From positions 32,001 to 96,000 of the IMG/VR virus record IMGVR_UViG_3300008448_000012: DNA of 64,000 nt, one strand, 5' to 3'. This DNA comes from a virus. The notes beneath the pieces were generated by a model that was not told the DNA's origin, made no database searches, and saw nothing but the letters and a program-made list of their open reading frames with translations. The translations under genes were made by a program, and so were the position numbers. Positions 972 to 54,427 of this stretch are shown in pieces (position 1 is the stretch's first letter; each line of letters begins with the position of its first letter).

Positions 972-1907
972 ATGAGTTATTATTACAAATATAATTTCGT
1001 AAGCCCTGAACCAGTTTATTCTACTATAAAAGAAGAACTGAAAAGCTATTTTGATACAGGGGCAATCGATGATTTGCTTTTCCCCACTTATACAGACAAA
1101 TGTCTTAGGAAGTTGGGTAAATCGTCTTATGAAATTCAAGAAACCTATCTTGATATCGAAGACTTTGAAGCAAGACTTCCTGATAACTTCTTTGCTGTAA
1201 GAGAAGCATGGATGTGTACAACTGTAAATGGTTATCCATATCAATCAGCAAACTCATTCTATTCTCAAGCTTCTACAGAGACAACTATTCAGGTGAGCCC
1301 TGTTATATCTGGAGGAACACCATGTACAAACCCAAGTTGTACAACTCCTGGTTGTGATGGTCACACATGCATGCCTGAATTGATACAAGCTGTATACAAG
1401 ACCAACAATTCACTCAATCGTTCTGTACAAAGACAATATTTGCTTAAACCAGGAAACATTTCTGTAAAAGCACATTGTACATTGGATTGTGCAAATCTTG
1501 GAAGTTCTTCTCTTGATAGCTTTGATATCAGAGATAATAAGTTTGTTACAAACTTTAGAAATGGTGTTGTTCATTTGGTATTCTATGCATACGAATATGA
1601 CAATGCTGGCAATCAAATGATTCCAGACAACTTTCGTATCAGGGAATATATTGAGCACTTTATTAAGTTTAAAGTTTTTGAAACTCTTGCTAATCAAATA
1701 AATGATGAAACATTCAATCAGATTCAACAGAAGCTTGCTTATTACAAACAGTTGTCTGAAGAAGCATACATCATGGCTGATATAGAGGTGAAGAAACAAG
1801 ATGTCTATGCTAAACAAAGAAGGATAGTTCAAGACCTGAACAGATTCAATATGTATGAACTTCCAAACAGAACCAATAGGTATGGTTGGAGAAGAAATGG
1901 ACAATAA
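972..1907 (+). CDS. Tail ring/tubular protein
   Basis: 311 aa directly upstream of the large stabilisation protein; crAss-like synteny. Confidence 0.6.
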   Translation: MSYYYKYNFVSPEPVYSTIKEELKSYFDTGAIDDLLFPTYTDKCLRKLGKSSYEIQETYLDIEDFEARLPDNFFAVREAWMCTTVNGYPYQSANSFYSQASTETTIQVSPVISGGTPCTNPSCTTPGCDGHTCMPELIQAVYKTNNSLNRSVQRQYLLKPGNISVKAHCTLDCANLGSSSLDSFDIRDNKFVTNFRNGVVHLVFYAYEYDNAGNQMIPDNFRIREYIEHFIKFKVFETLANQINDETFNQIQQKLAYYKQLSEEAYIMADIEVKKQDVYAKQRRIVQDLNRFNMYELPNRTNRYGWRRNGQ

Positions 1908-6896: not shown

Positions 6897-7376
6897 ATGG
6901 CACTTACAGTACTTATAACATTAACTTCAGCAGGATCAGATACAGGACCCTTCGACTTATATTCAGATGTTGATGGGTATATAGTACCATTTGAATCTGC
7001 TGTTCCAAAAGCATCTCTTCTTGCAGGATATAGCTCTACAGTGGTTCCTGATGGAACAACTATAATTAGGGTGAAGTCTGTAAGTGTCCTTTGTACAAAT
7101 TATATAGATTTGCCTGTTGCAGGTGCAACCACTACAACAACTACCACTACCACTGCACCTTTCTCTTGTGCTGATTGTAGAAACTGGCAGTATGTAGGAG
7201 AGACTATTCCTGTAGAAGGTGGTGTGATAAATTACTACAGGTGTAGTGATGGTGCTCCTCAAACAATTGTTTTGAGTAGTGGTGATCCTAGTGGATCTTT
7301 CTGTAACTGTAACTCTTCAGGAACACCTACTGGTGGAGGCATCACTCTTACAGAAGTGGGCATTTGTGTACCTTAA
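6897..7376 (+). CDS. Small structural protein: beta-rich domain + poly-Thr linker + Cys-rich domain
   Basis: 159 aa with T9 tract and C-terminal Cys-rich module. Confidence 0.6.
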   Translation: MALTVLITLTSAGSDTGPFDLYSDVDGYIVPFESAVPKASLLAGYSSTVVPDGTTIIRVKSVSVLCTNYIDLPVAGATTTTTTTTTAPFSCADCRNWQYVGETIPVEGGVINYYRCSDGAPQTIVLSSGDPSGSFCNCNSSGTPTGGGITLTEVGICVP

Positions 7377-13347: not shown

Positions 13348-13965
13348 ATGGCTTCATTTACAGGAATAATTTATCTCACTATTAACCAAATAAACGGAAA
13401 AGTTTATGTTGGACAAACTGGTGTTGATAGTAGTTCCTATATAGGAAGTGGTAAAGCAATGTTAAAAGCTATTAAAAAGTACGGAAAGTCAAACTTCATT
13501 AAAACAATACTTAGAGATAGCATAAAATCTTTAGAAGAATTAAATTTCTGGGAGGATTTTTATATAAGATTATTTGATTCTAGAAATCCAAAAATTGGAT
13601 ATAATATTCGTCCTGGTGGAAAGAATTCTAAATTTAAACACACTCCTGAATCTATTGTAAAAATTAAAAAAAGAAGTAATCAAGAAGATAACAGATTGAG
13701 AATCAGACAAATACAAAAAGTTGCAGCTGATACCAGAAAAGGGACGCATCATTCTAAAGAAGCAAAATTAAGAATAATGTCTACTAAATTTGGGCATGTT
13801 AAAGAAATAGAAATATATAAAAAGGATGGTGAGGTTTTATATACGTGCAATTTTTCAACTGAAGCTTCTGATCTTACTGGAGTAAAAAGAGCAGCAATTG
13901 CCAATAATCTTGCTGGTCTTTCTAAATCCGCAGGAGGATATATTTTTAAATATAAAAACAATTAA
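13348..13965 (+). mobile_element. Free-standing GIY-YIG homing endonuclease
   Basis: GIIY...VYVGQT, YIGSG, GYN, NUMOD3-like HTPES/HSKEAK and C-terminal NUMOD1-like SAGGYIFKY. Confidence 0.9.
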
Positions 13966-40874: not shown

Positions 40875-41006
40875 ATGGCAAAAGCTAAAGGCGGTGGTTC
40901 TGAGAAAACCAAAATCACATTCGGAAAACGTAAGAAAGGTAAAGCTCAGAAAAGCTACAACAAACATGATAGGTCAGAAAAGAACTATCGTGGACAAGGT
41001 AAATAA
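40875..41006 (+). CDS. Basic 43-aa peptide ending YRGQGK (not in ORF track)
   Basis: MAKAKGGGSEKTKITFGKRKKGKAQKSYNKHDRSEKNYRGQGK. Confidence 0.7.
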   Translation: MAKAKGGGSEKTKITFGKRKKGKAQKSYNKHDRSEKNYRGQGK

Positions 41007-41078
41007 CTGATTTAGTTAGACAATATTTTTAAATTGACATTGCAGATCTATCTGGATGTCATACCTTTATGATGTTTT

Positions 41079-41717
41079 ATGAAACTAACTAAATTAAAAA
41101 TTAACGAGCTTTGGAATAAATTACAGAGCGTAATTTCAAAAAACCCAGAGGAAGTATCTATTATTATAGAAGAAGAATCTCCTATTATAATAGAAGAAAC
41201 CCCACCTCCTCCTCCTGATATGGCTGTAATTTCTGAAGAGCAGCCTATAATAAATGAAGCAGAAGAGGAGGTTATTGAATATAGAGGATTGTTTTTTGAT
41301 AACAATAAACAAACAGCTCCAAGAGACATAATCAGAGCTGTTAAGTTTGGTAATACAAATGAGGCTTACACAAACAAGTTTATTGTTAAGAACAACACAT
41401 CAGGCAATCCAACAAGAATTACAGCATTACGTAAGGGATCTTATACACTAAGAATATCTGCCCAACTACAAAAGTTATCAGTAACTAAGAAAGCTCAAGT
41501 TGTTCTTTGCGTAAGAAAGAATGATTTGAATGTACCAGATACAGCAACCACTATAATAATGGAACCAGGACTTGTGGGATTGATTGCAACATGGGATTTT
41601 TCCATAGATATGCTGGCTGGAGAATATATAGAAATAATATGGTCACAAAATGGTGGAGTGGAAATATCAAATAAGCAGACACCAAGTGTGATGTTGAAGA
41701 TTAATCAGATAATATAA
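41079..41717 (+). CDS. Protein with acidic/Pro-rich N-terminus and C1q/BclA-like jelly-roll C-domain
   Basis: IIIEEE repeats, PPPPP, then GSYTLRISAQL...LAGEYIEIIW. Confidence 0.5.
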   Translation: MKLTKLKINELWNKLQSVISKNPEEVSIIIEEESPIIIEETPPPPPDMAVISEEQPIINEAEEEVIEYRGLFFDNNKQTAPRDIIRAVKFGNTNEAYTNKFIVKNNTSGNPTRITALRKGSYTLRISAQLQKLSVTKKAQVVLCVRKNDLNVPDTATTIIMEPGLVGLIATWDFSIDMLAGEYIEIIWSQNGGVEISNKQTPSVMLKINQII

Positions 41718-43537
41718 TGACAAGTAGACAAATAGGATGGAGCCAAGAATCTAACCTTCTCTATGAAATAGGGAAGCAGTTGGATATTCTTGCCAAGGTT
41801 TTAGCAAACTCTGGTAAGGGTAGTTTGGAAGCATACCCAGATTTGGCTTCTTTTCCTCCAGTGGGAGTTCCAGGAGTGATATACTTGGCTGAAGACACTG
41901 GATACATATATTATTGGGATGGAGCATCTTATGTTCAGTTTGGAGGAGGATCATATGTTCCTACCTCAAGACAGCTAACCATAAATGGTGTTACGTTTGA
42001 TTTGTCAGCAGACAGAACATGGACAATAAGTACAGGGGATGATATAACTGTTGTAGCAAACTATTCAGCTCTCCCTGCTCCAAACACTGTAACAGGACAA
42101 TTCTATTGGTGTTCAAATCCTCAAGGAACAGCATGGCTTCCTGGATCTGTAGGAGGAACATACTATAATTCAGGACTTTATTATTCAAATGGAACAACAT
42201 GGGAATTTCTCAATGTTCCATACCAAGCAACACAATCTGAGGTTAATGCAGGAATAATATCAGACAAGTTTGTAACTCCAAACACTCTGTTCAATTCTTC
42301 CCAATGGGGCACAAAAGAAAACCCATTAACATTCTCTGCCCCTCTTTCAAGAAGTGTAAACACAATTAGCATTCCTGCTGCATCGTCTTCAGCCAATGGT
42401 TATTTATCATCTACGGATTGGTCAACATTCAATGGCAAACAAGGTGCTTTAACACTCACCACCACAGGCACATCAGGTGCTGCTACATTGGTAGGAAATA
42501 CGCTTAATATTCCGCAGTATTCAGGCGGAGGTGGTGGTATGGCTATCGGTGGAAGCATAACTTCTGCAACGGCAGGTAGTGTGTTGTTTGCGGGAACAAG
42601 TGGGGTGTTGGCGCAGGATAATAGCAACCTGTTTTGGGACAATACTAATAAGAGGTTGGGGATTGGGACGGTAAGTCCGCAAGGCCCTTTTCATATCAAT
42701 TCAAATATTACTGCAGCTACTAATGGTTTAACAATAACAAGAAATGCAGTTTCTTTATCAGATGCAAATTTTCAGATAACAAGTGCAACAAATAATAGCG
42801 GAGAATTTTTACCTGCTTTTTTATTCACAAGTAATTTTTCTGCTCCTGGATTTACAATTGGTGGTTTTTTAAGTGCAAGAATTACAAATAGTTCAACAAC
42901 TGATATAGGAATTATTCTTGATGCAAGAACTAAATCAGCTTCAGCATTAACACAAGGATACATTTTATCGATTAGAGGTTTTACAACTGATTATGTTCGA
43001 ATAGCACATAATGGTAATATGATTCTACAAAACGGAGGCACTTTCACCGACGCAGGCTTCAGACTCGATGTTAACGGAACGATGAGGGTGCAGAGTGAGA
43101 CTGTATTAAATAATTTTTCAATTGGTAGAACATCACTTTCTCCAAGCTATCCTGCAATATGGATAGATAATGGGAATAGAACGCTTTTATCAAATTATTC
43201 TTATTCAGGATACTTACAACTTCAAGGCGCATATAATAATGAGGGAGCGCATTTAAGACTTTCAGGAAAAACTTCTATATCAAATACGGCTAATAGCGCA
43301 ATTTTAATTACGAGTGGATTTGTTATCGGTGTTTATGGAGTTGATAATGTAGGAATAAATCCAAACACTTCTGCAATATTACAAGCTAACTCAACTACTC
43401 AGGGCTTCCTTCCTCCAAGAATGACAACCACGCAGAAAAACGCTATAAGTTCTCCAGCATCAGGATTGGTGGTTTATGATTCTACAACAAATAAACTTTG
43501 CTGCTATAACGGCAGTACATGGAATGATTTATTTTAA
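41717..43537 (+). CDS. Fibre-like protein with RQIGWSQE N-terminal anchor
   Basis: FPPVG..GVIYLAEDTG motif; modules shared with the 34621 fibre; GFLPPRMTTTQKNAI..GLVVYD C-terminus. Confidence 0.75.
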   Translation: MTSRQIGWSQESNLLYEIGKQLDILAKVLANSGKGSLEAYPDLASFPPVGVPGVIYLAEDTGYIYYWDGASYVQFGGGSYVPTSRQLTINGVTFDLSADRTWTISTGDDITVVANYSALPAPNTVTGQFYWCSNPQGTAWLPGSVGGTYYNSGLYYSNGTTWEFLNVPYQATQSEVNAGIISDKFVTPNTLFNSSQWGTKENPLTFSAPLSRSVNTISIPAASSSANGYLSSTDWSTFNGKQGALTLTTTGTSGAATLVGNTLNIPQYSGGGGGMAIGGSITSATAGSVLFAGTSGVLAQDNSNLFWDNTNKRLGIGTVSPQGPFHINSNITAATNGLTITRNAVSLSDANFQITSATNNSGEFLPAFLFTSNFSAPGFTIGGFLSARITNSSTTDIGIILDARTKSASALTQGYILSIRGFTTDYVRIAHNGNMILQNGGTFTDAGFRLDVNGTMRVQSETVLNNFSIGRTSLSPSYPAIWIDNGNRTLLSNYSYSGYLQLQGAYNNEGAHLRLSGKTSISNTANSAILITSGFVIGVYGVDNVGINPNTSAILQANSTTQGFLPPRMTTTQKNAISSPASGLVVYDSTTNKLCCYNGSTWNDLF

Positions 43538-43548
43538 TACATAATAAC

Positions 43549-43572
43549 ATGGCAAATATTCAACCTGTTTGA
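43549..43572 (+). pseudogene. 7-codon remnant (MANIQPV*) of a fibre-associated small gene
   Basis: ATGGCAAATATTCAACCT resembles ATGGCACAAATTCAACCG (MAQIQPI) at 38261; same position relative to a fibre C-terminus. Confidence 0.55.
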
Positions 43573-43596
43573 AGTTGAATAATAAAATATAATAAA

Positions 43597-44769
43597 ATGG
43601 CTAATAGACAAATTGGTTGGAGTCAGGAAGCTAATCTTCTATATCTCATCTCTGGACAAGTGGACAGGGTTGCCCAAATAATTGCTAGTTCTGGTGTAGG
43701 AGGTGGGGTGAGTTCGTTCAATACCAGAACAGGAGATATTACACTTCTTTCTTCAGATGTAACAACTGCTCTTGGATATACGCCTACAAATGGTAATATT
43801 TATGGTACTAATGGTTCACTCACTGGAGTGAGAACTGTTAATACAGGAGCATATGCATTGGCTTTCACTGCTACACAGCCTGCTGCCAGTTATGCATTTA
43901 CAATTGGTACACCTACAGGTGTGAGTGTTCCTTCTTGGCCTGCAACATTTGTAAGGCAAGGTGAATTTAATATTTCATCAACATCTTCTGCTGAACCTGA
44001 AAACTCCAGGTATTGGGGAAGAAACCAAACGACAGCTCTTAAAAGTCTTTATGTAAATCAATCATATGCTGATGTCACTGCTGAAACAGCAGGAGGAGGT
44101 GTTTCTTTATATAATCAAAGTATAAGAACATACAGAGGATCTCCACTTGATATAAGCACTGCAGTTACAACATTGTCTAATTTAACAGGTGTAGTTAATA
44201 CTATAGGACATGGTTATTCTGGAACATCGTTAACTACTGCTCAAATACATACCCAAAATGTAAACGCAGTCCAATCTTCTATACAGAATAACGTTGGTAC
44301 AATGGTTAATGCTAACGGATATCGTATTATTCTTTCGATGTCACCAACCTCAACCAGTCAGAATTCCGCAATTACAAACTTCTATGGAGTAAATATAGGT
44401 ACATTTACCATAGGAGCAACCAGTGGACCAACAGCCACCATTACAAATTTCTATGCTCTTTATATAGATGGTATAACAACCCGTGCTACAGGAACTGTTA
44501 CAAACAGGTGGGGTATATATTCAACAGATTCCACTATGACACATTACCTTAATGGTAATGTATTGATTGGTACAAGTACAATTGCTGGATTTAAACTAGA
44601 TGTAAATGGGACGATGAGAGCATCTCAGTTTTATTTGAGTGCATTGAATTCAACTCCTGCTTCAGCAGGAGCAACAGGAACACTTGGAGAAATCAGAATT
44701 GACGCAAACTATATTTATGTATGTACAGCAACCAACACTTGGAAGCGTGCATCCATAGCAACTTGGTAA
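43597..44769 (+). CDS. Fibre-like protein with RQIGWSQE N-terminal anchor
   Basis: VSSFNTRTG, KLDVNGTMR, C-terminal GEIRIDANYIYVCTATNTWKR. Confidence 0.75.
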   Translation: MANRQIGWSQEANLLYLISGQVDRVAQIIASSGVGGGVSSFNTRTGDITLLSSDVTTALGYTPTNGNIYGTNGSLTGVRTVNTGAYALAFTATQPAASYAFTIGTPTGVSVPSWPATFVRQGEFNISSTSSAEPENSRYWGRNQTTALKSLYVNQSYADVTAETAGGGVSLYNQSIRTYRGSPLDISTAVTTLSNLTGVVNTIGHGYSGTSLTTAQIHTQNVNAVQSSIQNNVGTMVNANGYRIILSMSPTSTSQNSAITNFYGVNIGTFTIGATSGPTATITNFYALYIDGITTRATGTVTNRWGIYSTDSTMTHYLNGNVLIGTSTIAGFKLDVNGTMRASQFYLSALNSTPASAGATGTLGEIRIDANYIYVCTATNTWKRASIATW

Positions 44770-44780
44770 AATATAATAAA

Positions 44781-45464
44781 ATGGGAATTCCAAATAGACA
44801 AATAGGTATTTATAAAATCACTAGTCCTAGTGGTAAAACCTATATTGGTCAAAGTTGGAATATTAGAAAAAGAATTTATAAGTATAAAAGTGTACAAGGT
44901 TGCAAAAAACAAAGAATTTTATATAATTCTCTTAAAAAATATGGTTGGGAAAATCATATATTTGAAGTTGTCTATACATTACCCATAGAAACAGAGCAAC
45001 GCACTTTAGATAACTATGAAATATTTTATATTATTCAGTTTAAAGAAGCTGGATATGAAATGATGAATATAAAAGAAGGAGGTTCAGGAGGTAAATTATC
45101 TAAAGAATCTATACAAAAGATGATAGAGACTAGAGGAAAATGGAACCACTCAGAAGAAACTAAAAAGAAAATCAGTGAGTCTCACAAAGGAATAAAACAT
45201 TCTTTAGAGACTATTAAAAAAATGAAAGGAAGAAAATTTACAATTGAACATGTAAATAAAATGAAAGGAAGAAAGCGCAATGAATCAACTGTAGAAAAAT
45301 TTAAAAAAATTATTCTTCCTGGCAGATTAGTTTTAGATAAAGAGATGGGAATTTTTTATGATAGTATTGCGATGGCAGCTAAAATTTTTAGAATAAATCA
45401 AAAAACACTACATAATAGACTTACAGGAATTTCAAAAAATACTACTAATTTAATACTTGTATAA
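44781..45464 (+). mobile_element. Free-standing GIY-YIG homing endonuclease
   Basis: Start MGIPNRQIGIYKITSPSGKTYIGQS; SLKKYGWENH; NUMOD3 HSEETKKKIS. Confidence 0.9.
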
Positions 45465-45466
45465 TT

Positions 45467-45607
45467 ATGATACCTTCAAGACAAATAGGATGGTCTCAAG
45501 AAGCCAATCTCTTATGGGAGATAGCAAGAAAACTTGAAAGACTTATTCAAGTTGCTGGACCAACAAGTCCTACAACCACAACCACTACTACAACTGTAGC
45601 TCCTTAA
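45467..45607 (+). CDS. 46-aa RQIGWSQE-anchor peptide with poly-Thr tail (not in ORF track)
   Basis: MIPSRQIGWSQEANLLWEIARKLERLIQVAGPTSPTTTTTTTTVAP. Confidence 0.8.
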   Translation: MIPSRQIGWSQEANLLWEIARKLERLIQVAGPTSPTTTTTTTTVAP

Positions 45608-45634
45608 GAATTATAAAACCAACAAAAACTACAT

Positions 45635-46654
45635 ATGAAGGATCTAAAGTTCCTTTGCGTTCAGCCTGATGATCATTATTACGTTTGGCAAGTGCACACA
45701 TGGATTGAGAGTTTAAAAAATATTGGAAAGAGTGGGGACGCTATAGTGGTTGTTTTCACTCCAGACTTCAGAGAATTCAATACGAAATGGAAAGAGCTAC
45801 AGGCTTTGTATCCAGAGGTTGAATTCTTTTTTGTTAAGGATGAGGATGGAATCAGCAAACTGATAAGAGTGTATATTCCCATCATCAGACCTTATTCACT
45901 GATGAAATATTTTCAAGCTCGTCCAGAGATGGTACAAAAAGCAATATTCTATTGTGACTGTGATATCATCTTTACAGAGAAGTTCAATGTTGATCAATAT
46001 GTAGATGATGATGTTTGCTACCTATCTGATACAAACAGCTACATCAATGCTTCATATTTTGACAGCAAGATAAAAGATGTCAAACCTGAACTTCTCGAAG
46101 AATATAAGAAGATGGATGTTCTTTCTGGAGCATGCAGTCTTGTAGGAATAACACGTGAGATATGTGAGAAGAACAATCAGCATTCAGGAGGAGCACAATA
46201 TCTTCTGAAGAACGTAGGAGCAAGCTTTTGGGAAAAGGTGATTGGTGATTGCATTATGATAAGAACCTATCTCTCTGCTATAAACAAAGACTTCTTTGAG
46301 AATGAGAGTAAGGGGTTTCAGTCTTGGTGCTCTGATATGTGGGCTGTGCTTTGGAACCTTTGGTTAAGAGAACAAGAAACAAAATGTATTCCTGAAATGA
46401 ATTTTGCATGGAGTACAGATCATATAAGTAAATTAAATAATTCAACGATCCTTCATAATGCAGGAATATCATCCACACATATGGGAGATGTTCCAGTGTT
46501 CTACAAAGGACTCTATCACAATAAAAAAGATCCTTTTGAGGATCCACATTTAACCAACGTTTTAAATAATGAAAAGAGCAAGAGTCTCTGTAATCATTAC
46601 TATTTGACAAAAATGTTTGAAGTTAAAAATAAATATAATTTAAACTATGGCTAG
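45635..46654 (+). CDS. GT-A glycosyltransferase, HPAT/SERGT (GT95/GT96)-like
   Basis: YYVWQ, YIPIIRPY, IFYCDCDIIF (DxD), WCSDMWAV and ILHNAG in the order of HPAT/SERGT motifs. Confidence 0.65.
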   Translation: MKDLKFLCVQPDDHYYVWQVHTWIESLKNIGKSGDAIVVVFTPDFREFNTKWKELQALYPEVEFFFVKDEDGISKLIRVYIPIIRPYSLMKYFQARPEMVQKAIFYCDCDIIFTEKFNVDQYVDDDVCYLSDTNSYINASYFDSKIKDVKPELLEEYKKMDVLSGACSLVGITREICEKNNQHSGGAQYLLKNVGASFWEKVIGDCIMIRTYLSAINKDFFENESKGFQSWCSDMWAVLWNLWLREQETKCIPEMNFAWSTDHISKLNNSTILHNAGISSTHMGDVPVFYKGLYHNKKDPFEDPHLTNVLNNEKSKSLCNHYYLTKMFEVKNKYNLNYG

Positions 46655-47066
46655 TAATAAACGCTTTTTAAAAGCATACGCAAGATTTGATGGTTCTGGA
46701 AGAATTGTTCCATCTAGCACTATTCTCAGAAAGAATAAACCTAAGGTGGGTAATTGGACAGAAGTGCAAACATATGAGTGCTGCAATGAAGTATCCTCCT
46801 ATGATCTATTTGCTATACCACCATTACCAATAACTTGGCCCGATGTAATATTTTTCTGTAACGAAGAAGGATTACCTATTGGATCTGGTTTCCCAGGAAC
46901 ATACACAACATTGGAAGAGCTAGCAGATGCATTTAATGCTGAAATAGGCTCAATGTATGGAGTTTTCTCAGTGTACAACGATGGTATAAAACTCACGGTA
47001 TCAGCAGAGTTTAAGAACACCCACTGTCCAAATGGTGTTTTAACATATGGTATTATACCAGACTAA
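46647..47066 (+). CDS. Modular protein, KRxLKAY...CCN anchor family (1)
   Basis: Shared ~45-aa N-terminus followed by a small domain. Confidence 0.7.
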   Translation: MASNKRFLKAYARFDGSGRIVPSSTILRKNKPKVGNWTEVQTYECCNEVSSYDLFAIPPLPITWPDVIFFCNEEGLPIGSGFPGTYTTLEELADAFNAEIGSMYGVFSVYNDGIKLTVSAEFKNTHCPNGVLTYGIIPD

Positions 47067-47076
47067 AATATAAAAT

Positions 47077-47499
47077 ATGTCTAACAAACGTTTCCTAAGA
47101 GCTTTTGTAGAATACGATGGAACAGGGAGAGTGCTTCCTGGAAGTCTTGTTCTGCGTGGCAACATCCCAAGAGTTGGGAACTGGGGAGAGATTCCTGCAT
47201 ACAAATGTTGCAATCCCTCTACACCAATGTCCAACACTGTAACAGCTGGTGGTGAACCAGGAACTATTTGTGTATATGGATTTGAGCTGTTCTGTGATGA
47301 ATTGTTTCTGTTTGGAATAGCATTTGATTTTGGAGACACTATGACAAGTGTTCTTTCAGGATTGAATTCTTCATATGGATTCCTTGGACAATGGACAGCT
47401 CCTGACAGTGGAACAATCAAGCTTGATATGAAAGACGAAGTTGCTAAAGGACTTTGTCCAAATGGAACCATAACAATTACCTATATTTGTGGAGGATAA
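47077..47499 (+). CDS. Modular protein, KRxLKAY...CCN anchor family (2)
   Basis: Shared N-terminus; C-domain resembles that of 46647 (CPNG). Confidence 0.7.
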   Translation: MSNKRFLRAFVEYDGTGRVLPGSLVLRGNIPRVGNWGEIPAYKCCNPSTPMSNTVTAGGEPGTICVYGFELFCDELFLFGIAFDFGDTMTSVLSGLNSSYGFLGQWTAPDSGTIKLDMKDEVAKGLCPNGTITITYICGG

Positions 47500-47504
47500 A
47501 CATT

Positions 47505-49001
47505 ATGGAAAAAAGAATTTTAAAAGCTTACGAACGTTACGATTATAATGGAAGAGTTGTACCAGGCAGCCTTGTATTGAGAAGTAAGAAGCCTAAGAAC
47601 GGTAAATGGAAGGAAGTACAAGCCTATAGATGTTGTAATGAAACAGGAGGTATTTGTACTAATTTCTGGATTAACCAAACAGTGAATCCAGATAATCTAG
47701 ATGGTGTTTGGACAGTAGGATCAGGAATGGATACTCAATGTAATTCATTTATGATAATGGAAGATTACTGGACCAGTCCAAACAACCCTAATCAAGATTC
47801 CCCACAAAACTTAGTGCTACAAAAGTTAAATAACGCTGGTGAGGTAGTTTGGAATAGAGTGTTTGATTTTGCAGAAAGTGGTGTAGACTATGAATATTTG
47901 GAAGCTCAAACAATGGGCGTAGACAAAAATAATAATGTGATTGTTTGTCTAATAGCATATGTTACAGCAACTTCTAAACAAAGAACAGGTATCATAAAGT
48001 TTGATAATGATGGTAATAAGTTATGGGCAATAATTCTTACAGATTCTATCTATGATCAAGAATATGTAACCTCTATAAAATTTGATAGTTTTAATAATAT
48101 TTATCTTGCTATTCGTGGAGGTGGAAGTACAGGTGGTATAATAAAAGTTACTCCAGAAGGTGCAATAGTAGACAAAAAGTATTTAGTCCATCTATACAAC
48201 CTAGATGAGTGTTATATAGAAGTGAATTCAAATAACGAAATTTATTTGATAACCAAATATTATGGTCCTCCACCCATTTATAACGCTCGTATTATTAAAT
48301 TGGATTCTTCTCTAAATGAAATTTGGAATAAGAGCTTTGATCCAGATACAGGTGGTACTCCATATGGTATAGCATTAGATGCAAATGAGAATATAGTATT
48401 TCAAATAGGTAATGGAATTGGTGCAAATACATCATCTCTATTTGGAGCATACATAAAGGTGTCACCAGAAGGAAACTTTATTTGGGCTACTAGGATATCT
48501 AATACTATAGATCCTGATGTTTCTCTTGGAACTTTTCAATTAGACTCTGATAAAAGCGGTAATGTATATATTTCATCAGGTTATCCATCCTCAATTCCTG
48601 GATATAGTACTAATCCAAGCAATACAGTAATTATAGCAAAACTGTTACCAAATGGATCTCTTGATTGGGTTTATGGTATAGAGTCTGTTAGTAGCATATA
48701 TCCTTGGTATTGGAGTAGTCCAATAGTGGGAAAAGTTGTAAACAATGCTCTTATTCTTGCATATTATAATGATGGAGATCCATTTGATGCACAATTGTTT
48801 AAACTTCCATTAACTGCTGTAGCTGACGGTACATATGGAGATTATACATTTACAAACATCACTAACTTATGGACAACATCAAATCCTTCAATTATACTTA
48901 GTGATGCTGAAAGTATTTGGACATCTGATTCTACAAATTCAGTGGAATTGAACTATCTTACATTTGAGGGAACTTACACAACAACACTTACATCTTTGTA
49001 A
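47505..49001 (+). CDS. Modular protein, anchor family (3), with beta-propeller
   Basis: Start MEKRILKAY at 47505; repeats GVDKNNNV/FDSFNNIY/LDANENIV/SDKSGNVY with KxDxxGnxxW. Confidence 0.7.
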   Translation: MEKRILKAYERYDYNGRVVPGSLVLRSKKPKNGKWKEVQAYRCCNETGGICTNFWINQTVNPDNLDGVWTVGSGMDTQCNSFMIMEDYWTSPNNPNQDSPQNLVLQKLNNAGEVVWNRVFDFAESGVDYEYLEAQTMGVDKNNNVIVCLIAYVTATSKQRTGIIKFDNDGNKLWAIILTDSIYDQEYVTSIKFDSFNNIYLAIRGGGSTGGIIKVTPEGAIVDKKYLVHLYNLDECYIEVNSNNEIYLITKYYGPPPIYNARIIKLDSSLNEIWNKSFDPDTGGTPYGIALDANENIVFQIGNGIGANTSSLFGAYIKVSPEGNFIWATRISNTIDPDVSLGTFQLDSDKSGNVYISSGYPSSIPGYSTNPSNTVIIAKLLPNGSLDWVYGIESVSSIYPWYWSSPIVGKVVNNALILAYYNDGDPFDAQLFKLPLTAVADGTYGDYTFTNITNLWTTSNPSIILSDAESIWTSDSTNSVELNYLTFEGTYTTTLTSL

Positions 49002-49003
49002 TT

Positions 49004-49132
49004 ATGGAAACTACCACAACCACTACTACATCTGCTCCTGTTGAAAAATTATACGGTAGAGAACTTGCAGATAAATTGAGAGAAGAAAGAGAGCAAAAAA
49101 GAGTTGCCAGACTTCAGTCTTCTCAACAGTAA
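49004..49132 (+). CDS. 42-aa peptide with N-terminal poly-Thr (not in ORF track)
   Basis: METTTTTTTSAPVEKLYGRELADKLREEREQKRVARLQSSQQ. Confidence 0.65.
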   Translation: METTTTTTTSAPVEKLYGRELADKLREEREQKRVARLQSSQQ

Positions 49133-49150
49133 TATATTAAAATAGAAGAA

Positions 49151-50059
49151 ATGGATAAAAGAATTCTTAAAGCTTACGAAAGATATGACTACAATGGTAA
49201 AGTTGTTTCTGGTAGTCTTGTACTCAGATACAAAAAGCCTAAAAATGGTAAATGGAAAGAGTTGACAAGTTATGAGTGTTGTAACGACATAACAACTACC
49301 ACTACAATTCCTCCAGCATTTAGAATGTTTGCAACTACTACATCTCCTAGTCAGACATTTCAATTCTCAATAGGATCATTAGGAGGAGTTTTACCACTTA
49401 ATATAGATTGGGGTGATGGTAATTCAGAAACAGTTAGTACTCCTACATACTCATCATCTGATCTAGCACATACATATGTTTCCCCAGGTTCATATGTAGT
49501 GACTCTTACTAGTACTTCTCCTCAATACTTTGGTGTCTTAAATTCATTTACATCAATTCTAAAAAATATAACTGGATGGGATCAGTTTCCAAATATGACA
49601 GGTTTATACATAAGTAATGGTGGATTTACATCAGTAGACTTTGGCACTCTAAATTTCTTAAGTTCAGTAACTCTTATAGACATGCCAAGTCTTACATCTT
49701 TTACATTTACAAGTCTTCCTGCATTAAGTTTCTTACATTTGTATGGTACTAATATATCAGGAAATTTGTTTAGTGGGAAATCTCTTCCACTTCTTAGTGA
49801 GCTTAATGCTGCTTATACAGATATCACCAACATTGACTTATCAGGACTTCCAGACTTATACATCTTACGTTTGATGGGCTGTGCTATAACAAATAGTACA
49901 GATATTGATAACATATTTATTGGTATTCTTGCTAATGATAGAACAGGTGGTGTAATTGATGTAAGTGGAGGAACTAATGCTGCTCCAACAGCTGCTAGTG
50001 CTGCTGCTAGAGCCACTCTTACAAACTTTGATTACGACTACTATTTAGCTTACAATTAA
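49151..50059 (+). CDS. Modular protein, anchor family (4): Thr linker + PKD-like + LRR-like
   Basis: TTTTTIPP; IDWGDG..HTYVSPGSYVVTL; LPALSFLHL/LPLLSELNA/LSGLPDLYILRL. Confidence 0.7.
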   Translation: MDKRILKAYERYDYNGKVVSGSLVLRYKKPKNGKWKELTSYECCNDITTTTTIPPAFRMFATTTSPSQTFQFSIGSLGGVLPLNIDWGDGNSETVSTPTYSSSDLAHTYVSPGSYVVTLTSTSPQYFGVLNSFTSILKNITGWDQFPNMTGLYISNGGFTSVDFGTLNFLSSVTLIDMPSLTSFTFTSLPALSFLHLYGTNISGNLFSGKSLPLLSELNAAYTDITNIDLSGLPDLYILRLMGCAITNSTDIDNIFIGILANDRTGGVIDVSGGTNAAPTAASAAARATLTNFDYDYYLAYN

Positions 50060-50074
50060 TAAAACAAATATAAA

Positions 50075-50485
50075 ATGGCAAAATCCCTATTTCCAGAAGA
50101 CATGATGTCAAAGTCTGGAGGAGCTATGACTCTTGAAACCATCGCAGCTAAGCTCACTTATTTTCATGAGCAATTGCATCTATTGCATTGGCAAACAAGC
50201 TCTTATGCTGAGCATCAAGCTCTTGGAGGATTGTACGATTATGTACATGATTTCAAAGATGGATTGATTGAAAAGATTATGGGATATACAGGGAAGCGTC
50301 CTAGTGGTTATAAAATTGATTCAGTTACAGCAACAGCTGCCACTTCTGTAGTTAGTGAACTTATGGCATTTGCTTCTAGTCTAAAAGATTATGGAGAAGC
50401 AAATTCATATCACGATGTTTGTAATCTTGCTGATTCTCTTTCTGGAGAAGCAGCTAAAACTAAATATCTGCTAACCCTCAGCTAA
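50075..50485 (+). CDS. Dps/ferritin-like protein
   Basis: LHLLHWQTSSYAEHQALGGLYD...DGLIE. Confidence 0.8.
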   Translation: MAKSLFPEDMMSKSGGAMTLETIAAKLTYFHEQLHLLHWQTSSYAEHQALGGLYDYVHDFKDGLIEKIMGYTGKRPSGYKIDSVTATAATSVVSELMAFASSLKDYGEANSYHDVCNLADSLSGEAAKTKYLLTLS

Positions 50486-50766
50486 TGCAAATACATACAA
50501 AATTCTTTCCCCAAGTGTTGCAAGATAATGAAATAGCTTATTTTGCACACTTGGAGGGAATTTTAGAGGCAGTGGATGAATTGGCTTCTTTAGAGATAAC
50601 AAAAAATCCACACTCATACCACTTTAGACTAGCTCCTTCTCTACCAAAATATAACGACATGTTATTGGAAGAGCTATTAAAGTTTCACAATTTGCTGCAG
50701 ATAAAGCTGAATCTCAGCAAGAGTATAAAAAGTTCAGCAACAATAGTATTTGAAATTTCAATTTAA
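50485..50766 (+). CDS. Hypothetical protein
   Basis: 93-aa ORF coupled to upstream stop. Confidence 0.6.
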   Translation: MQIHTKFFPQVLQDNEIAYFAHLEGILEAVDELASLEITKNPHSYHFRLAPSLPKYNDMLLEELLKFHNLLQIKLNLSKSIKSSATIVFEISI

Positions 50767-50771
50767 CTGAC

Positions 50772-51242
50772 ATGCCTACATTTATTAAAACAGGATTTTG
50801 GGAAAAACTGTCTAAAGCTCCCAAGGAATATTTGAATCTTGACAACCTCATCCAATCAATTGGAGGAGGAGGAGGTGGTTCCTATCTTAAATATATTGCT
50901 TCAATGGGGCAAGTTGGAATCAGTGACCCTCAGGTGATTGTTCATGAGAACACAATAGGTAATATTGTTTGGACAAGAGATTCTGATGGTTTATATATAG
51001 CCACTTTAGCAGGAGCATTTCCTAACGGAAAAGTTTGGTGCAATGTAACCTCAGGTTCCAACTATGGCAACACTACAATTCCTATTGGGTTTGCAAAAGA
51101 AAATTTTAATTCAAATGATTCACTTGCACTTCGTACAGGATATATTGATGCTACAGGTGCAGATGTTCCTGTAGATATAAATTCAAATTTTGGACCTAAT
51201 GTTGTTTATGAGTATTCTATTGAAATTCGTGTATACCCATAA
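50772..51242 (+). CDS. Putative structural/decoration protein
   Basis: GGGGGG linker, beta-rich domain ending SIEIRVYP. Confidence 0.55.
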   Translation: MPTFIKTGFWEKLSKAPKEYLNLDNLIQSIGGGGGGSYLKYIASMGQVGISDPQVIVHENTIGNIVWTRDSDGLYIATLAGAFPNGKVWCNVTSGSNYGNTTIPIGFAKENFNSNDSLALRTGYIDATGADVPVDINSNFGPNVVYEYSIEIRVYP

Positions 51243-51248
51243 AATAAA

Positions 51249-51280
51249 TTTGGTAAATCCAAATTAATTTATTACATTCG
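51249..51280 (+). promoter_or_regulatory. Bacteroidota sigmaA-type promoter
   Basis: AAAATAAA then TTTG-N20-TACATTCG. Confidence 0.7.
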
Positions 51281-51296
51281 CCCCTAAAACCAATTT

Positions 51297-51524
51297 ATGG
51301 AAAAAATTAAATACGATCCTACAAAATCCTACAAATGGACACCAGATGATTCTTTTATTTTGTCTGGAGGAGAATTCGGAACAATTCTAAATGCATTCCG
51401 TGCTGTACTTTCTTCTCAAGAAGCCCAAAAAATCATTGCTGTTGAAAGAGCAAATGATTTGCTTGAGGGAGTTTTGAAGAAAGCTGTAGAAGATGGAATT
51501 GCTGTAGAGTCAAATAATGAGTAA
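51297..51524 (+). CDS. Hypothetical protein
   Basis: 75-aa ORF after the promoter. Confidence 0.65.
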   Translation: MEKIKYDPTKSYKWTPDDSFILSGGEFGTILNAFRAVLSSQEAQKIIAVERANDLLEGVLKKAVEDGIAVESNNE

Positions 51525-51697
51525 TGAAAAAACAAATGATTAAACGCAAGGATGGTTCTGTCTCACAACGTGGTTTGTGGGACAACTTGAGGAGCAAAGC
51601 TGCTGAAAATAAAGCATCAGGAGCTAAGCCCAAAAAACCTACAGCCCAAATGCTTAAGCAAGAGAAGAAGATTAAAGCTGCTTCTAAGAAGAAATGA
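51524..51697 (+). CDS. Lys-rich micro-protein, 57 aa
   Basis: MKKQMIKRKDGSVSQRGLWDNLRSKAAENKASGAKPKKPTAQMLKQEKKIKAASKKK. Confidence 0.7.
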   Translation: MKKQMIKRKDGSVSQRGLWDNLRSKAAENKASGAKPKKPTAQMLKQEKKIKAASKKK

Positions 51698-51774
51698 AAA
51701 TGTGTGGTATCCATATAATCCCTTTGGATGAACATGGACTATGTCCAATATGTCTAAATGATAAAAACACTTAA
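51694..51774 (+). CDS. 26-aa CxxH/CxxC peptide
   Basis: MKMCGIHIIPLDEHGLCPICLNDKNT; fills the gap with an ATGA overlap. Confidence 0.45.
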   Translation: MKMCGIHIIPLDEHGLCPICLNDKNT

Positions 51775-51776
51775 TT

Positions 51777-51932
51777 ATGGCAAAGGTAAGCAAAGCTAAA
51801 AACATCTCTGCAGGTGTTGGTGGCAAAGGTAAGAAAGCTCCTATGGTAGATCCCAAAGGTGCTTATACAAAAGTGCAAGAACGCACTCTTGGTAACATGA
51901 AGAAAGGCGGTAAAGTTTCTAAAAAGAAATAA
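51777..51932 (+). CDS. Lys-rich micro-protein, 51 aa
   Basis: MAKVSKAKNISAGVGGKGKKAPMVDPKGAYTKVQERTLGNMKKGGKVSKKK. Confidence 0.7.
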   Translation: MAKVSKAKNISAGVGGKGKKAPMVDPKGAYTKVQERTLGNMKKGGKVSKKK

Positions 51933-51934
51933 CC

Positions 51935-52096
51935 ATGGCTACAGATAAAAAGTGGATACAAAAAGCCACTGCTTCTATTAAACGTAGAGGTACAGAAGGT
52001 AAATGTACCCCCATCACTAAACCTGGATGCACAGGTAAAGCTAAAGCCCTTGCCAAGACTTTCAAGAAAATGGCTAAAGCCCGTAAAGGCAAATGA
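51935..52096 (+). CDS. Lys-rich micro-protein, 53 aa
   Basis: MATDKKWIQKATASIKRRGTEGKCTPITKPGCTGKAKALAKTFKKMAKARKGK. Confidence 0.7.
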   Translation: MATDKKWIQKATASIKRRGTEGKCTPITKPGCTGKAKALAKTFKKMAKARKGK

Positions 52097-52296
52097 CAAT
52101 ATTCGAACCATCAAATCGTGTTGAGGTTTCTACTCCCAAAGGTGATGGAGTCATTTGGTTAGTGACCGAGTTTGGTCATGAAACAGATACAATTTACACT
52201 GTAATTATTAATGATACAGGTGAAATGTGGCAGTTGCGTCATAAAGATATTATTGTAAAGAACAACATTACTTTTGGTAGAAATGGCAACTATTAA
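52093..52296 (+). CDS. Small hypothetical beta protein
   Basis: 67 aa; VSTPKGDG..NITFGR. Confidence 0.6.
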   Translation: MTIFEPSNRVEVSTPKGDGVIWLVTEFGHETDTIYTVIINDTGEMWQLRHKDIIVKNNITFGRNGNY

Positions 52297-52642
52297 AAAA
52301 CTTCTTCAGGATGCTCCTAGGATGAGAGGTGTTACACCTGTTCCTAATGGACCATTGGTTAAGAAGAAAGGACCTTATAAAGGATCCACACTTAAATCAG
52401 GTGGTAAGGTGAAGGTTGTTGCTGGTGGTGAAAAGCACGTAGTTTACAAAGCTTCAAAGAAAACTTCTAAAGGTAAACCTGGAGATGTTATGGTGAATCA
52501 TCCTACAATGGATAAAGGTAAATGGGATACCATTAATCTTACCAAGAAAGGAAAAGCCAAAACTGTTAAACAGGGAGTTGCTGCTACAAAGAAATGGCAC
52601 AAAGACAACCCTGATTATAAATACAAGGGTAAAAAGAAATAA
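52283..52642 (+). CDS. Lys-rich basic protein
   Basis: Start MATIKK at 52283; LKSGG motif. Confidence 0.7.
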   Translation: MATIKKLLQDAPRMRGVTPVPNGPLVKKKGPYKGSTLKSGGKVKVVAGGEKHVVYKASKKTSKGKPGDVMVNHPTMDKGKWDTINLTKKGKAKTVKQGVAATKKWHKDNPDYKYKGKKK

Positions 52643-52643
52643 A

Positions 52644-52946
52644 ATGGCTACTGTTAAAAAAGTTATGAAGTCTGGTGGTAAAACACCTGCTTGGACACGT
52701 TCTGAAGGAAAGGATCCAAAAGGAGGTCTCAACCGTAAGGGTGTAGCTAGTTATAGAGCTGCTAATCCTGGCAGTAAGTTAAAGATGGCTGTAACTACAC
52801 CTCCTTCTAAGTTAAAGAAAGGTAGTAAGGCAGCAAAAAGAAGAAAAAGTTTTTGTGCCCGAATGTCAGGAGTTAAAGGTCCTATGAAAAAACCAAATGG
52901 TAAACCTACAAGAAAAGCTCTTGCTCTTCGTAAATGGAATTGTTAA
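52644..52946 (+). CDS. Basic phage protein (DUF6321-like)
   Basis: PAWTRSEGKDPKGGLN...RRKSFCARM...ALRKWNC. Confidence 0.75.
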   Translation: MATVKKVMKSGGKTPAWTRSEGKDPKGGLNRKGVASYRAANPGSKLKMAVTTPPSKLKKGSKAAKRRKSFCARMSGVKGPMKKPNGKPTRKALALRKWNC

Positions 52947-52965
52947 TCATAAAAATTAATATAAA

Positions 52966-53235
52966 ATGGCAACTGTTAAAAAGAAAATGAAATCTGGTGG
53001 ATCTCTTGGTATGAAATCAGTTAAGGCTGGTTATGACAAGAATCCTTCTGTAACTAGGGCTGACGTTATCGTAGCTGCTAAGGGTGAAGCTAAACATGGT
53101 ACTAAAATGAAGAAAGCTAAAAGTGGTGCTGCTTTGAAAAAGCAAGCTGCTACAGCTATTGCCATGAAAAAAGCTGGTAAGGCTCCCAAGAAGATGATGA
53201 AGATGGGTGGTAAATGTAAATATGGTTGCAAATGA
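52966..53235 (+). CDS. Lys-rich basic protein
   Basis: MKSGG, AKHG, AKSG and MKMGG motifs. Confidence 0.75.
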   Translation: MATVKKKMKSGGSLGMKSVKAGYDKNPSVTRADVIVAAKGEAKHGTKMKKAKSGAALKKQAATAIAMKKAGKAPKKMMKMGGKCKYGCK

Positions 53236-53369
53236 AATCAGGCAAACCAAAGAAAGCTCCTAAAGTGAAAAATCCTCGTCCAAAGGATAATTACATGAAG
53301 GAAGCTGATACAAAGCTTAGACTCAAAAGTCCTCAATGGCCTATGAAGCAGAAGAGATTATCAAAATAA
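53232..53369 (+). CDS. Lys-rich micro-protein, 45 aa
   Basis: MKSGKPKKAPKVKNPRPKDNYMKEADTKLRLKSPQWPMKQKRLSK. Confidence 0.65.
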   Translation: MKSGKPKKAPKVKNPRPKDNYMKEADTKLRLKSPQWPMKQKRLSK

Positions 53370-53400
53370 GAAAAGCCCCAATTAATTTTGGGGCTTTTTT
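53370..53400. terminator. Bidirectional rho-independent terminator
   Basis: AAAAGCCCCAA-loop-TTGGGGCTTTTTT at the convergence of the + and - gene blocks. Confidence 0.9.
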
Positions 53401-54068
53401 ATTTTCTTATAATAGTCTTGTTTAAACCTTGGAGATAGTGTAATCACTCCTTTTGTATTATCCAACACCTTGTCTGCCTTGTTTAGGATTGTTTCATTGG
53501 ATTGTTTACCCAGTCCTGATATATGTAGAGTGTTCATTCCCCATCTATATATCATTGTTGGATCATCTATGGTGTATATTTTGGCATTGTTTGAAAATGT
53601 AATGTCAGCATCCTCATCTCCACTTTTATCTGGAAACTTGATTCTGTCTAAATAGGATTTAGTGTATACATTCCCATTATTTACACTGCCTGTAATTTTA
53701 TCATAGACATTGTTCACAAAGAAATAGTGTCCCTTGCTTCTGTATATTTCATATCCAGGATTGGATTGAATTGCTTCAGACACAATCTTCAATCCTCCAT
53801 CATACAAAAGATCATCATCATCGAGTCTATATATGTAATCATATTTACACTGCTTATATCCCCATTCAAGTTTAGAGGCTATAGATGGAAATCTTTCTTT
53901 ACAATTGATAACTCTCACCCTGTCATGGTTATAAACATAATCCACTTCTGGATTATCATTTATAATAACCATTTCACAATTAAGTGAATCATCCTGTTGT
54001 AAAAAAGATTCAATAGCTTCTTCAAGAAGATGATGTCTTTTATATGTTATTGTAAGTGTAGATATCAT
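53382..54068 (-). CDS. Glycosyltransferase family 2
   Basis: TYKRHHLLEEAIESFLQQ, VIIND, YRLDDDD, GDED. Confidence 0.85.
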   Translation of the reverse strand: MISTLTITYKRHHLLEEAIESFLQQDDSLNCEMVIINDNPEVDYVYNHDRVRVINCKERFPSIASKLEWGYKQCKYDYIYRLDDDDLLYDGGLKIVSEAIQSNPGYEIYRSKGHYFFVNNVYDKITGSVNNGNVYTKSYLDRIKFPDKSGDEDADITFSNNAKIYTIDDPTMIYRWGMNTLHISGLGKQSNETILNKADKVLDNTKGVITLSPRFKQDYYKKIKKPQN

Positions 54069-54427
54069 TAGTATACCATCTCTTTGGCTAATCCTTTATC
54101 AAGAAGTACAGCGTTAAGATGCATGCTATAACCTTCACCACAATATACATCCACAAGTGGTCGTCCATATTTGTCCAGGTCCTTACTCTTGATGATGATT
54201 GTTGATCCTTCAGGGAGATTGGCTTTAGTGAACTCTTTAGATTCCAAGCCTCGTTTCTTTTCTTCAGCATCTTTAGTCTTTGTCTCAGGGGTATTAATTC
54301 CATAAAATCTACATGGAGATTTGAAATAGGTTCTGAATCCTAAGTCAATAAGCAAATCAGCAGTGTCTCCATCAAGCACCCTAATGATTGTAGCTTTATA
54401 ATAATGCAAGTTACTTTCCATACTCAT
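54068..54427 (-). CDS. Thermonuclease (SNase-like)
   Basis: VLDGDT, RFYGINTPE, DKYGRPL. Confidence 0.9.
   Translation of the reverse strand: MSMESNLHYYKATIIRVLDGDTADLLIDLGFRTYFKSPCRFYGINTPETKTKDAEEKKRGLESKEFTKANLPEGSTIIIKSKDLDKYGRPLVDVYCGEGYSMHLNAVLLDKGLAKEMVY

Follow-up and report, generated by a model that had tools for sequence, protein, structure and literature searches.

To our knowledge, glycosylation of a phage particle by the phage's own enzymes has been demonstrated experimentally for mycobacteriophages only. There, phage glycosyltransferases reportedly modify the proteins of their own particle, and the glycans are said to be carried by extensions at the ends of capsid and tail-tube subunits. 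Here we analyze a 64,000-nucleotide stretch of viral DNA (the window), which comprises bases 32001-96000 of the complete 114,470-bp IMG/VR record IMGVR_UViG_3300008448_000012 with direct terminal repeats, and in it a glycosyltransferase-like open reading frame (ORF 45635..46654, hereafter the enzyme) that lies among genes for virion proteins carrying pure runs of threonine (Thr). From its fold, its gene neighborhood and its joint presence and loss with these runs, we consider it likely that the enzyme is a cytoplasmic protein O-glycosyltransferase acting on the poly-Thr tracts of virion proteins. An earlier note, made from the letters of the window, had proposed O-glycosylation of Thr-rich surface peptides by an enzyme like the plant HPAT (GT95) and SERGT (GT96) proteins; the O-glycosylation part has gained comparative support from fold, co-occurrence and joint loss, whereas membership of the plant families has not stood.

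Virion O-glycosylation of the mycobacteriophages Che8, Corndog and Myrna is described in the summary that PMC12619734 gives of Freeman et al. 2023 (Cell Host Microbe). The system proposed here would share with these phages a phage-encoded enzyme directed at its own virion, and the terminal extensions parallel the proposed Thr tails of Bacillota phages. It differs in that the presumed acceptors are pure Thr runs, which also occur as internal linkers and on stand-alone mini-fibers, in that the enzyme gene stands in the structural operon beside its presumed substrate, and in its hosts, which are Bacteroidota and Bacillota plus, for one phage, Actinomycetota. The mycobacteriophage enzymes are set beside the enzyme's family, phrog_4417, by description only, and Arcanobacterium phage TPWB06 is the only actinobacteriophage among the 77 phage records that matched this family.

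Serine-rich repeat adhesins offer a bacterial parallel, in which GtfA/B and then GlyE and other enzymes O-glycosylate long Ser/Thr repeats while the protein is still in the cytoplasm, ahead of its transfer to its final location. GlyE of S. pneumoniae, which we take to be an enzyme of this pathway, matches the phage protein by fold (Z 13.0), and the stepwise extension of the adhesin glycans parallels the domain fusions of the phage family; however, the initiating glycosyltransferase of the adhesins is a GT-B protein and the substrates are exported bacterial adhesins. Chlorovirus PBCV-1 encodes A064R, a viral GT-A enzyme for glycosylation of the major capsid protein that also matches by fold (Z 10.9), but more weakly than GT8/GT77 proteins do, and PBCV-1 is a giant virus of eukaryotes whose N-linked glycans are atypical. 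The plant enzymes HPAT (hydroxyproline O-arabinosyltransferase) and SERGT1 (peptidyl-serine alpha-galactosyltransferase) attach the first sugar to hydroxyl amino acids in cell-wall proteins that are repetitive and unstructured, as would the enzyme on Thr tracts, but they are Golgi membrane proteins, whereas the phage protein looks soluble. By analogy, the proposed system resembles mycobacteriophage virion glycosylation and the cytoplasmic glycosylation of serine-rich repeat adhesins, with a fold that groups with retaining GT8/GT77-type enzymes.

Fold and family of the enzyme

No Pfam family matched the enzyme at E 0.1 or below, and a sequence search of the PDB with the single sequence and with a profile gave no match. 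It does match phrog_4417, a phage protein family without an assigned function, at E 3.6e-51 (residues 4-309 against positions 1-275 of a 293-position profile). A collection of 5.8 billion proteins holds 1519 relatives, none of them with a name, and 755 cluster representatives are related at E 0.001 or below. An AlphaFold2 model built on a 50-sequence alignment reached a mean predicted local distance difference test score (pLDDT) of 96.9 and a predicted template modeling score (pTM) of 0.93, and by the fold of this model the protein is, with high confidence, a GT-A glycosyltransferase, which bears out the class that the earlier note had given it. The fold search against PDB representatives returned 107 structures at Z 8 or more. 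GT-A glycosyltransferases take the first 12 places and most of the first 50, led by Skp1 alpha-galactosyltransferase (AgtA, Z 14.4), glycogenin (Z 14.2), LgtC (Z 14.0) and the catalytic domain of UGGT (Z 14.0), with WbbM (Z 13.4) and GlyE further down. Foldseek gave 239 matches at E 0.001 or below, including glycogenin and UGGT at E ~1e-6, and among viral models members of the enzyme family stand at the top, followed by GT8-like enzymes of giant viruses.

The likeness to the GT8, GT77 and GT24 enzymes (glycogenin, LgtC, AgtA and UGGT; Z 14.0-14.4) extends over 218-246 aligned residues and includes an Asp-x-Asp motif and a later conserved His, but sequence identity is 8-12%, and the phage protein exceeds these enzymes by about 80 residues and has additional helices. 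The Pfam GT8 family (Glyco_transf_8) matched neither the window protein nor any of the members in the two family alignments, of 50 (A1) and 59 (A3) sequences. The earlier note had listed a series of motifs with a DxD in this ORF; all are present and coincide with columns that the family conserves. D108 and D110 of the Asp-x-Asp, placed at the end of model strand 103-107, are invariant in both alignments, as are H274 and K291, and Y80, Y136 and F257 are likewise invariant in the 50-sequence alignment. In GT8 enzymes the Asp-x-Asp and the His are metal ligands, and from what is known of that family the pair found here fits such a metal site; H274 and K291 may correspond to the third-ligand His and the phosphate-motif Lys of GT8.

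Distant homologs are fused to GT2, GT6, Glyco_transf_7C (five cases), GT29 or GT25 domains, to PF11397 with O-FucT, to methyltransferases and to a radical SAM domain, which is the pattern expected if the family provides the first enzyme of a glycan pathway. It is very improbable that the ORF encodes an inactive, glycosyltransferase-like structural or assembly protein whose association with Thr has no chemical meaning: the Asp-x-Asp and His do not vary in the diverse sequences of either alignment (50 and 59), and fusions to other sugar-handling domains recur within the family. Judging by the model, the enzyme is probably soluble, metal-dependent and retaining; neither its sequence nor its model shows a membrane segment or a signal peptide. 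The most likely product is an alpha-linked sugar taken from a UDP-sugar, because the fold neighbors are all retaining enzymes.

As to the plant families, the order of the motifs that the earlier note had likened to HPAT and SERGT is real and lies on conserved columns, but the nearest solved folds are GT77, GT8 and GT24 rather than GT95 or GT96, with no solved HPAT or SERGT structure among the fold matches. Membership of the HPAT family was rejected, as PF23452 does not match the window protein and the best-scoring family member (P0272, 21.9 bits, E 1.3e-4, collinear over profile positions 9-230 of 307) stays below the gathering cut-off of 23.9 bits; it is the one near-match in about 96 family members tested, and a search seeded with it returned no PF23452-annotated protein. 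A distant link to HPAT is plausible nonetheless, because 21 of the 30 named ESM Atlas neighbors of the enzyme belong to clusters that carry PF23452.

Poly-Thr tracts beside the enzyme

In genuine + strand ORFs of the window, runs of at least four Thr are positioned between folded parts or at protein ends (Table 1), and the tracts to which the earlier note had pointed at ~6335, ~7128, 49010 and ~49292 are all among them. Its remark that the tracts use mixed ACN codons holds across the related loci, in which only 1 of 256 tracts of at least six ACN codons is built from a single codon; the other 255 mix codons, and an origin as slippage-prone simple repeats was rejected on that ground. A further coding-strand run of at least six ACN codons lies in the same genome, 4.2 kb ahead of the window start (G000:C1:27813-27832). 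Proline homopolymers occur as linkers of virion proteins too, with ten Pro at 21305 in a 4059-aa ORF and five Pro at 41202 in the 212-aa ORF at 41079. The 42-aa ORF that begins with T7 was not counted as an established gene, since no homolog was found in about 160 related loci.

Directly upstream of the enzyme stands a 46-aa ORF that joins a fiber-type N-terminal helix to T8 and Val-Ala-Pro; its Thr run, its anchor and its distance of 27 nucleotides from the enzyme ATG are as the earlier note had described them. In a model of this mini-fiber, residues 11-30 form the helix (pLDDT about 80) and the tail is unstructured. In a comparison set of 80 IMG/VR loci, in which the enzyme is 59-73% identical to that of the window, a mini-fiber-type ORF ends 25-31 nucleotides 5' of the enzyme gene in most loci. 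Of its 42 unique versions, 39 have a run of T4 or more, and most end in Ala, Thr, Pro or Val, then Ala or Thr, then Pro. With 0.65 synonymous (pS) and 0.22 nonsynonymous (pN) differences per site in the helix part (pN/pS 0.34), these comparisons indicate that the mini-fiber is a real gene whose helix part is under purifying selection. A read-through fusion of mini-fiber and enzyme was excluded: although both are read in the same frame in the window, a pair of TAA stops separates them, and in relatives the 25-31-nucleotide spacer is often no multiple of three.

The helix belongs to the first of two anchor families. Anchor 1 (core motif RQIGWSQE) heads the fiber-like proteins at 41717 and 43597 as well as the mini-fiber, and in relatives it is joined to a wide variety of distal parts, among them collagen-like and Gly-Thr-Ser repeats; judged by these sequences, anchor-1 proteins show the pattern of exchangeable fiber proteins with a common docking piece. 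Anchor 2, which ends in CCN, heads the ORFs at 46647, 47077, 47505 and 49151, and relatives have one to three mini-proteins of anchor 2 plus Thr runs downstream of the enzyme, including at the position orthologous to 46647..47066.

This make-up bears on a second reading, in which phage proteins are indeed modified by the enzyme while the Thr tracts act as spacers or as tags for docking or recognition, with the sugar placed elsewhere or the enzyme riding the virion through the tracts. In favor of this reading, glycogenin, a close fold match, modifies a Tyr. However, the mini-fibers consist of a docking helix and a Thr run only and so offer no other plausible acceptor, and the tracts are constrained to Thr residues, which mixed codons encode. 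We therefore hold this reading to be unlikely and keep to the tracts as the probable acceptors.

The association of enzyme and tracts is strong in numbers. The 1.17 Mb of DNA surrounding the enzyme contain 282 runs of T5 or more, against 7 in 1.03 Mb of control viral loci (approximately 35-fold denser), and the next most frequent homopolymer residue around the enzyme is Leu, with 23 runs in the same 1.17 Mb. In the reverse direction, the enzyme was found in 7 of 118 viral loci picked solely for eight consecutive ACN codons and in none of 117 picked for eight GAN codons (Fisher p 0.007), and, for whole records, in 4 of 42 with poly-Thr against 0 of 42. Each of the six loci newly identified in this way has a poly-Thr ORF as the direct 5' neighbor of the enzyme gene, and these ORFs are mutually unrelated in size (184 to 2069 aa).

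Beyond the relatives of the window phage, the enzyme family occurs in 77 of 50,697 deposited phage genomes. Eleven lineages were inspected, including the window's own clade, with hosts in three bacterial phyla, and they have a Thr tract on a neighboring capsid, tail or fiber-type gene; LP65, the most distant lineage, deviates with Thr/Gln repeats in place of pure Thr tracts. In Enterococcus phage phiFL1A, the major tail protein and the capsid-like gp45 both terminate in long Thr runs, and the gene next after that of the tail protein is the enzyme gene. In Enterococcus phage Planchet the enzyme comes after the major capsid gene, and an unannotated frame that overlaps the end of the capsid gene encodes Thr runs. 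The tail protein ends in T9 in Lactococcus phage bIL285 and in TPWB06, which also has an overlapping Thr-rich frame, the tail tube protein of phiCTP1 ends in two Thr runs, and Lactococcus phage 1706 has T9-10 at the ends of two proteins, the major structural protein and the capsid/protease. Upstream of the enzyme, PT94 has T14 near the C-terminus of the directly adjoining ORF, two ORFs of Semele consist of Thr repeats, and two ORFs of Chryseobacterium phage MA9V-3 contain long Thr/Ser stretches. The frames of Planchet (locus L321, 9892..10035, major capsid) and TPWB06 (locus L405, 5660..5923, major tail) overlap the 3' ends of their genes or are unannotated and contain long Thr runs; they are candidates for a programmed frameshift that would give a Thr tail to a fraction of the subunits.

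A natural knock-out exists in the window's own clade. With the Dps-like gene (50075..50485) as anchor, we collected 80 more loci, 48 of them with at least 6 kb upstream, and the enzyme is present in 47 of the 48. The sole exception (locus L325 of record G085) is the closest relative of the window phage by its Dps-like gene (93% identity). In the 70.5 kb of G085 there is no match to the enzyme family, no GT2-type glycosyltransferase and no run of six ACN codons, whereas four sites of this last kind occur in the genome of the window phage. In the mini-fiber counterpart (L325 7617..8255), seven Pro replace T8 and the protein extends to 213 aa with a folded-looking C-terminal part. The counterpart of ORF 49151 is 50% identical with T5 missing, T5-S-T5 of the 1666-aa protein is precisely deleted while the sequence around it is conserved, the 159-aa protein has a counterpart of 77 aa that stops where T9 would begin, and the 42-aa ORF 49004..49132 is absent. 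Hence, enzyme and tracts are jointly present or lost, with the Thr run missing at five of five orthologous sites checked.

These observations also bear on a third reading, by which the enzyme targets something other than a phage protein, either a host envelope glycan (for superinfection block or receptor change) or phage DNA, and the Thr tracts are flexible linkers in mobile fiber cassettes. The GT-A clan does include lipopolysaccharide and polysaccharide enzymes such as LgtC and WbbM, both among the better fold matches, and most poly-Thr viral contigs are without the enzyme. Against this, the enzyme lies directly 3' of Thr-tailed structural genes in unlike modules (capsid in Planchet; tail tube in phiFL1A, phiCTP1 and 1706; fibers here), so that a shared mobile cassette does not explain the pairing, and G085, without the enzyme, has also lost tracts 40 kb from the enzyme's position. 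The lack of a visible membrane segment or signal peptide speaks against this reading as well, and the window phage genome has no ThyA-family gene for hydroxymethyl-pyrimidine DNA; there is therefore no ThyA route to such DNA, and a T4-style glucosylated hydroxymethyl base is unlikely. We give little credence to a non-phage or DNA target, and the co-occurrence of enzyme and poly-Thr that the earlier note had put forward as a check is seen across very different phages as well as, in reverse, in the close enzyme-less relative without tracts.

Several points weigh against glycosylation of the tracts by the enzyme. Whole viral records with poly-Thr runs lack the enzyme in 38 of 42 cases, and poly-Thr therefore does not need it. 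Three enzyme-bearing related loci have a Thr-free mini-fiber and no T5 run within 10 kb; two are complete genomes with tracts elsewhere, and the third, a 25% fragment, has none. In the window itself, two anchor-2 proteins adjoining the enzyme are without a Thr tract. Loci inside one clade are related and the counts overstate their independence, so that it is the cross-lineage cases that carry weight, and the natural knock-out is a single genome pair in which the G085 record is estimated to be 61% complete. In the literature, we found no paper on the enzyme family, on glycans of its members or on poly-Thr tails in phage glycosylation.

The structural operon and the second glycosyltransferase

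The window phage is an environmental crAss-like phage, probably with a host in the Bacteroidota, given that the proteins closest to its large virion protein (1886..6886) are those of Cellulophaga phages phi17:2 and phi4:1, phage csAssE-Sib, Flavobacterium phage FpV4 and a Leptolyngbya phage. From the window start to approximately 53.3 kb all genes are on the + strand, and the PHROG matches there are virion proteins. A promoter and terminator scan found no + strand terminator-like sites between genes in 41000..51500, with counts at shuffle level, which fits a single transcript across 41-51.5 kb but is not proof of it.

Table 1. Genes and Thr tracts of the window, in window positions (Tn, run of n Thr residues; E, E value).
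Feature	Position	Strand	Family match
T5-S-T5 linker inside 1666-aa virion protein (1886..6886)	6335..6367 (runs at 6335, 6353)	+	
T4 run	6746	+	
T9 linker between two domains of 159-aa protein (6897..7376)	7128..7154	+	
Fiber-like protein, 606 aa, anchor-1 N-terminus	41717..43537	+	
Fiber-like protein, 390 aa, anchor-1 N-terminus; C-terminus resembles tail-protein PHROGs	43597..44769	+	
GIY-YIG homing endonuclease between fiber gene and mini-fiber gene	44721..45464	+	phrog_314, E 6.2e-30
Mini-fiber gene, 46 aa, putative acceptor protein	45467..45607	+	
T8 tract of mini-fiber, then Val-Ala-Pro	45572..45595	+	
Glycosyltransferase (by fold), 339 aa	45635..46654	+	phrog_4417
Anchor-2 protein, 139 aa, no Thr tract	46647..47066	+	
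Anchor-2 protein, 140 aa, no Thr tract	47077..47499	+	
Anchor-2 protein, 498 aa, weak beta-propeller-like matches	47505..49001	+	
42-aa ORF beginning with T7, uncertain status	49004..49132	+	
T7 at start of 42-aa ORF	49010	+	
Anchor-2 protein, 302 aa: T5 linker, then PKD-like and leucine-rich-repeat-like parts	49151..50059	+	
T5 linker in 302-aa anchor-2 protein	49292..49306	+	
Dps-like DUF5856 protein	50075..50485		PF19174, E 3.4e-14
GT2-family glycosyltransferase, 228 aa	53382..54068	-	PF00535, E 1.3e-12

The GIY-YIG endonuclease gene ahead of the mini-fiber gene, for which PF01541 and NUMOD3 score slightly below their cut-offs, is a passenger outside the proposed glycosylation system. It is one of two such genes in the structural operon (the other is 13348..13965), its first residues copy the start of anchor 1 (Arg-Gln-Ile-Gly), and it ends 2 nucleotides ahead of the mini-fiber ATG; several relatives have another endonuclease directly 5' of the enzyme gene. 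The Dps-like gene is found at 58-93% identity in nearly all relatives and lies 0.1-6 kb 3' of the enzyme gene in 47 loci. The + strand gene block ends, directly ahead of the - strand genes, with seven short and very Lys-rich ORFs (51524..53369; 47-122 aa), several of them apparently paralogous.

The GT2 at 53382, which the earlier note had suggested as an extending enzyme, is indeed there, and it is the only GT2 and the only other glycosyltransferase in the genome. A homolog is found in 75 related loci, and none near the enzyme in L038, L041 and L044; G085 lacks it together with the enzyme. It is a possible second step that would extend the glycan. In G085, approximately 1 kb comprising the GT2 and an adjoining 119-aa ORF (54068..54427, nuclease-like by eye only) is replaced by approximately 300 nucleotides (L325 13362..13671) with a different small ORF. 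The window phage genome has no epimerase or NTP-transferase gene, and sugar donors must therefore come from the host.

Proposed mechanism and meaning

We propose that the enzyme would be made late in infection from the structural operon and would, in the host cytoplasm, transfer sugar from a host nucleotide-sugar to Thr hydroxyls in the poly-Thr tracts of phage particle proteins. The acceptor tracts would be the unstructured linkers and tails on the 46-aa mini-fiber, the anchor-2 decoration protein and the two upstream virion proteins. Because its N-terminal helix is common to both large fiber proteins, the mini-fiber may dock at the same sites on the particle, where it would display a short sugar-coated tail. 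We infer the transfer, the kind of sugar, the acceptor role of the tracts and the place of the mini-fiber on the virion from the fold, the conserved catalytic residues, the gene order and the joint presence and loss of enzyme and tracts. More tentatively, and with somewhat less than even confidence, the comparisons suggest that the enzyme family starts a widespread phage system that builds mucin-like glycopeptide brushes; in the crAss-like lineage of the window phage these may be 'glyco-whiskers' of 45-60 residues, each a docking helix with a glycosylated Thr tail, at the sites of tail fibers, and the Thr runs may be a portable, enzyme-dependent tag that is purged once the enzyme is lost.

Given that cultured carriers exist, the proposal is directly testable with ordinary methods. 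If it is true, the enzyme and its acceptor would form a compact enzyme-and-tag pair with which chosen proteins could be sugar-modified in bacteria. A poly-Thr tract with an adjoining phrog_4417 gene would then predict a sugar-coated virion, a rule that would cover phages of lactic acid bacteria, enterococci, staphylococci, clostridia and Bacteroidota, including dairy and therapy-relevant phages, and would bear on phage stability, adsorption, antibody recognition and behavior in mucus.

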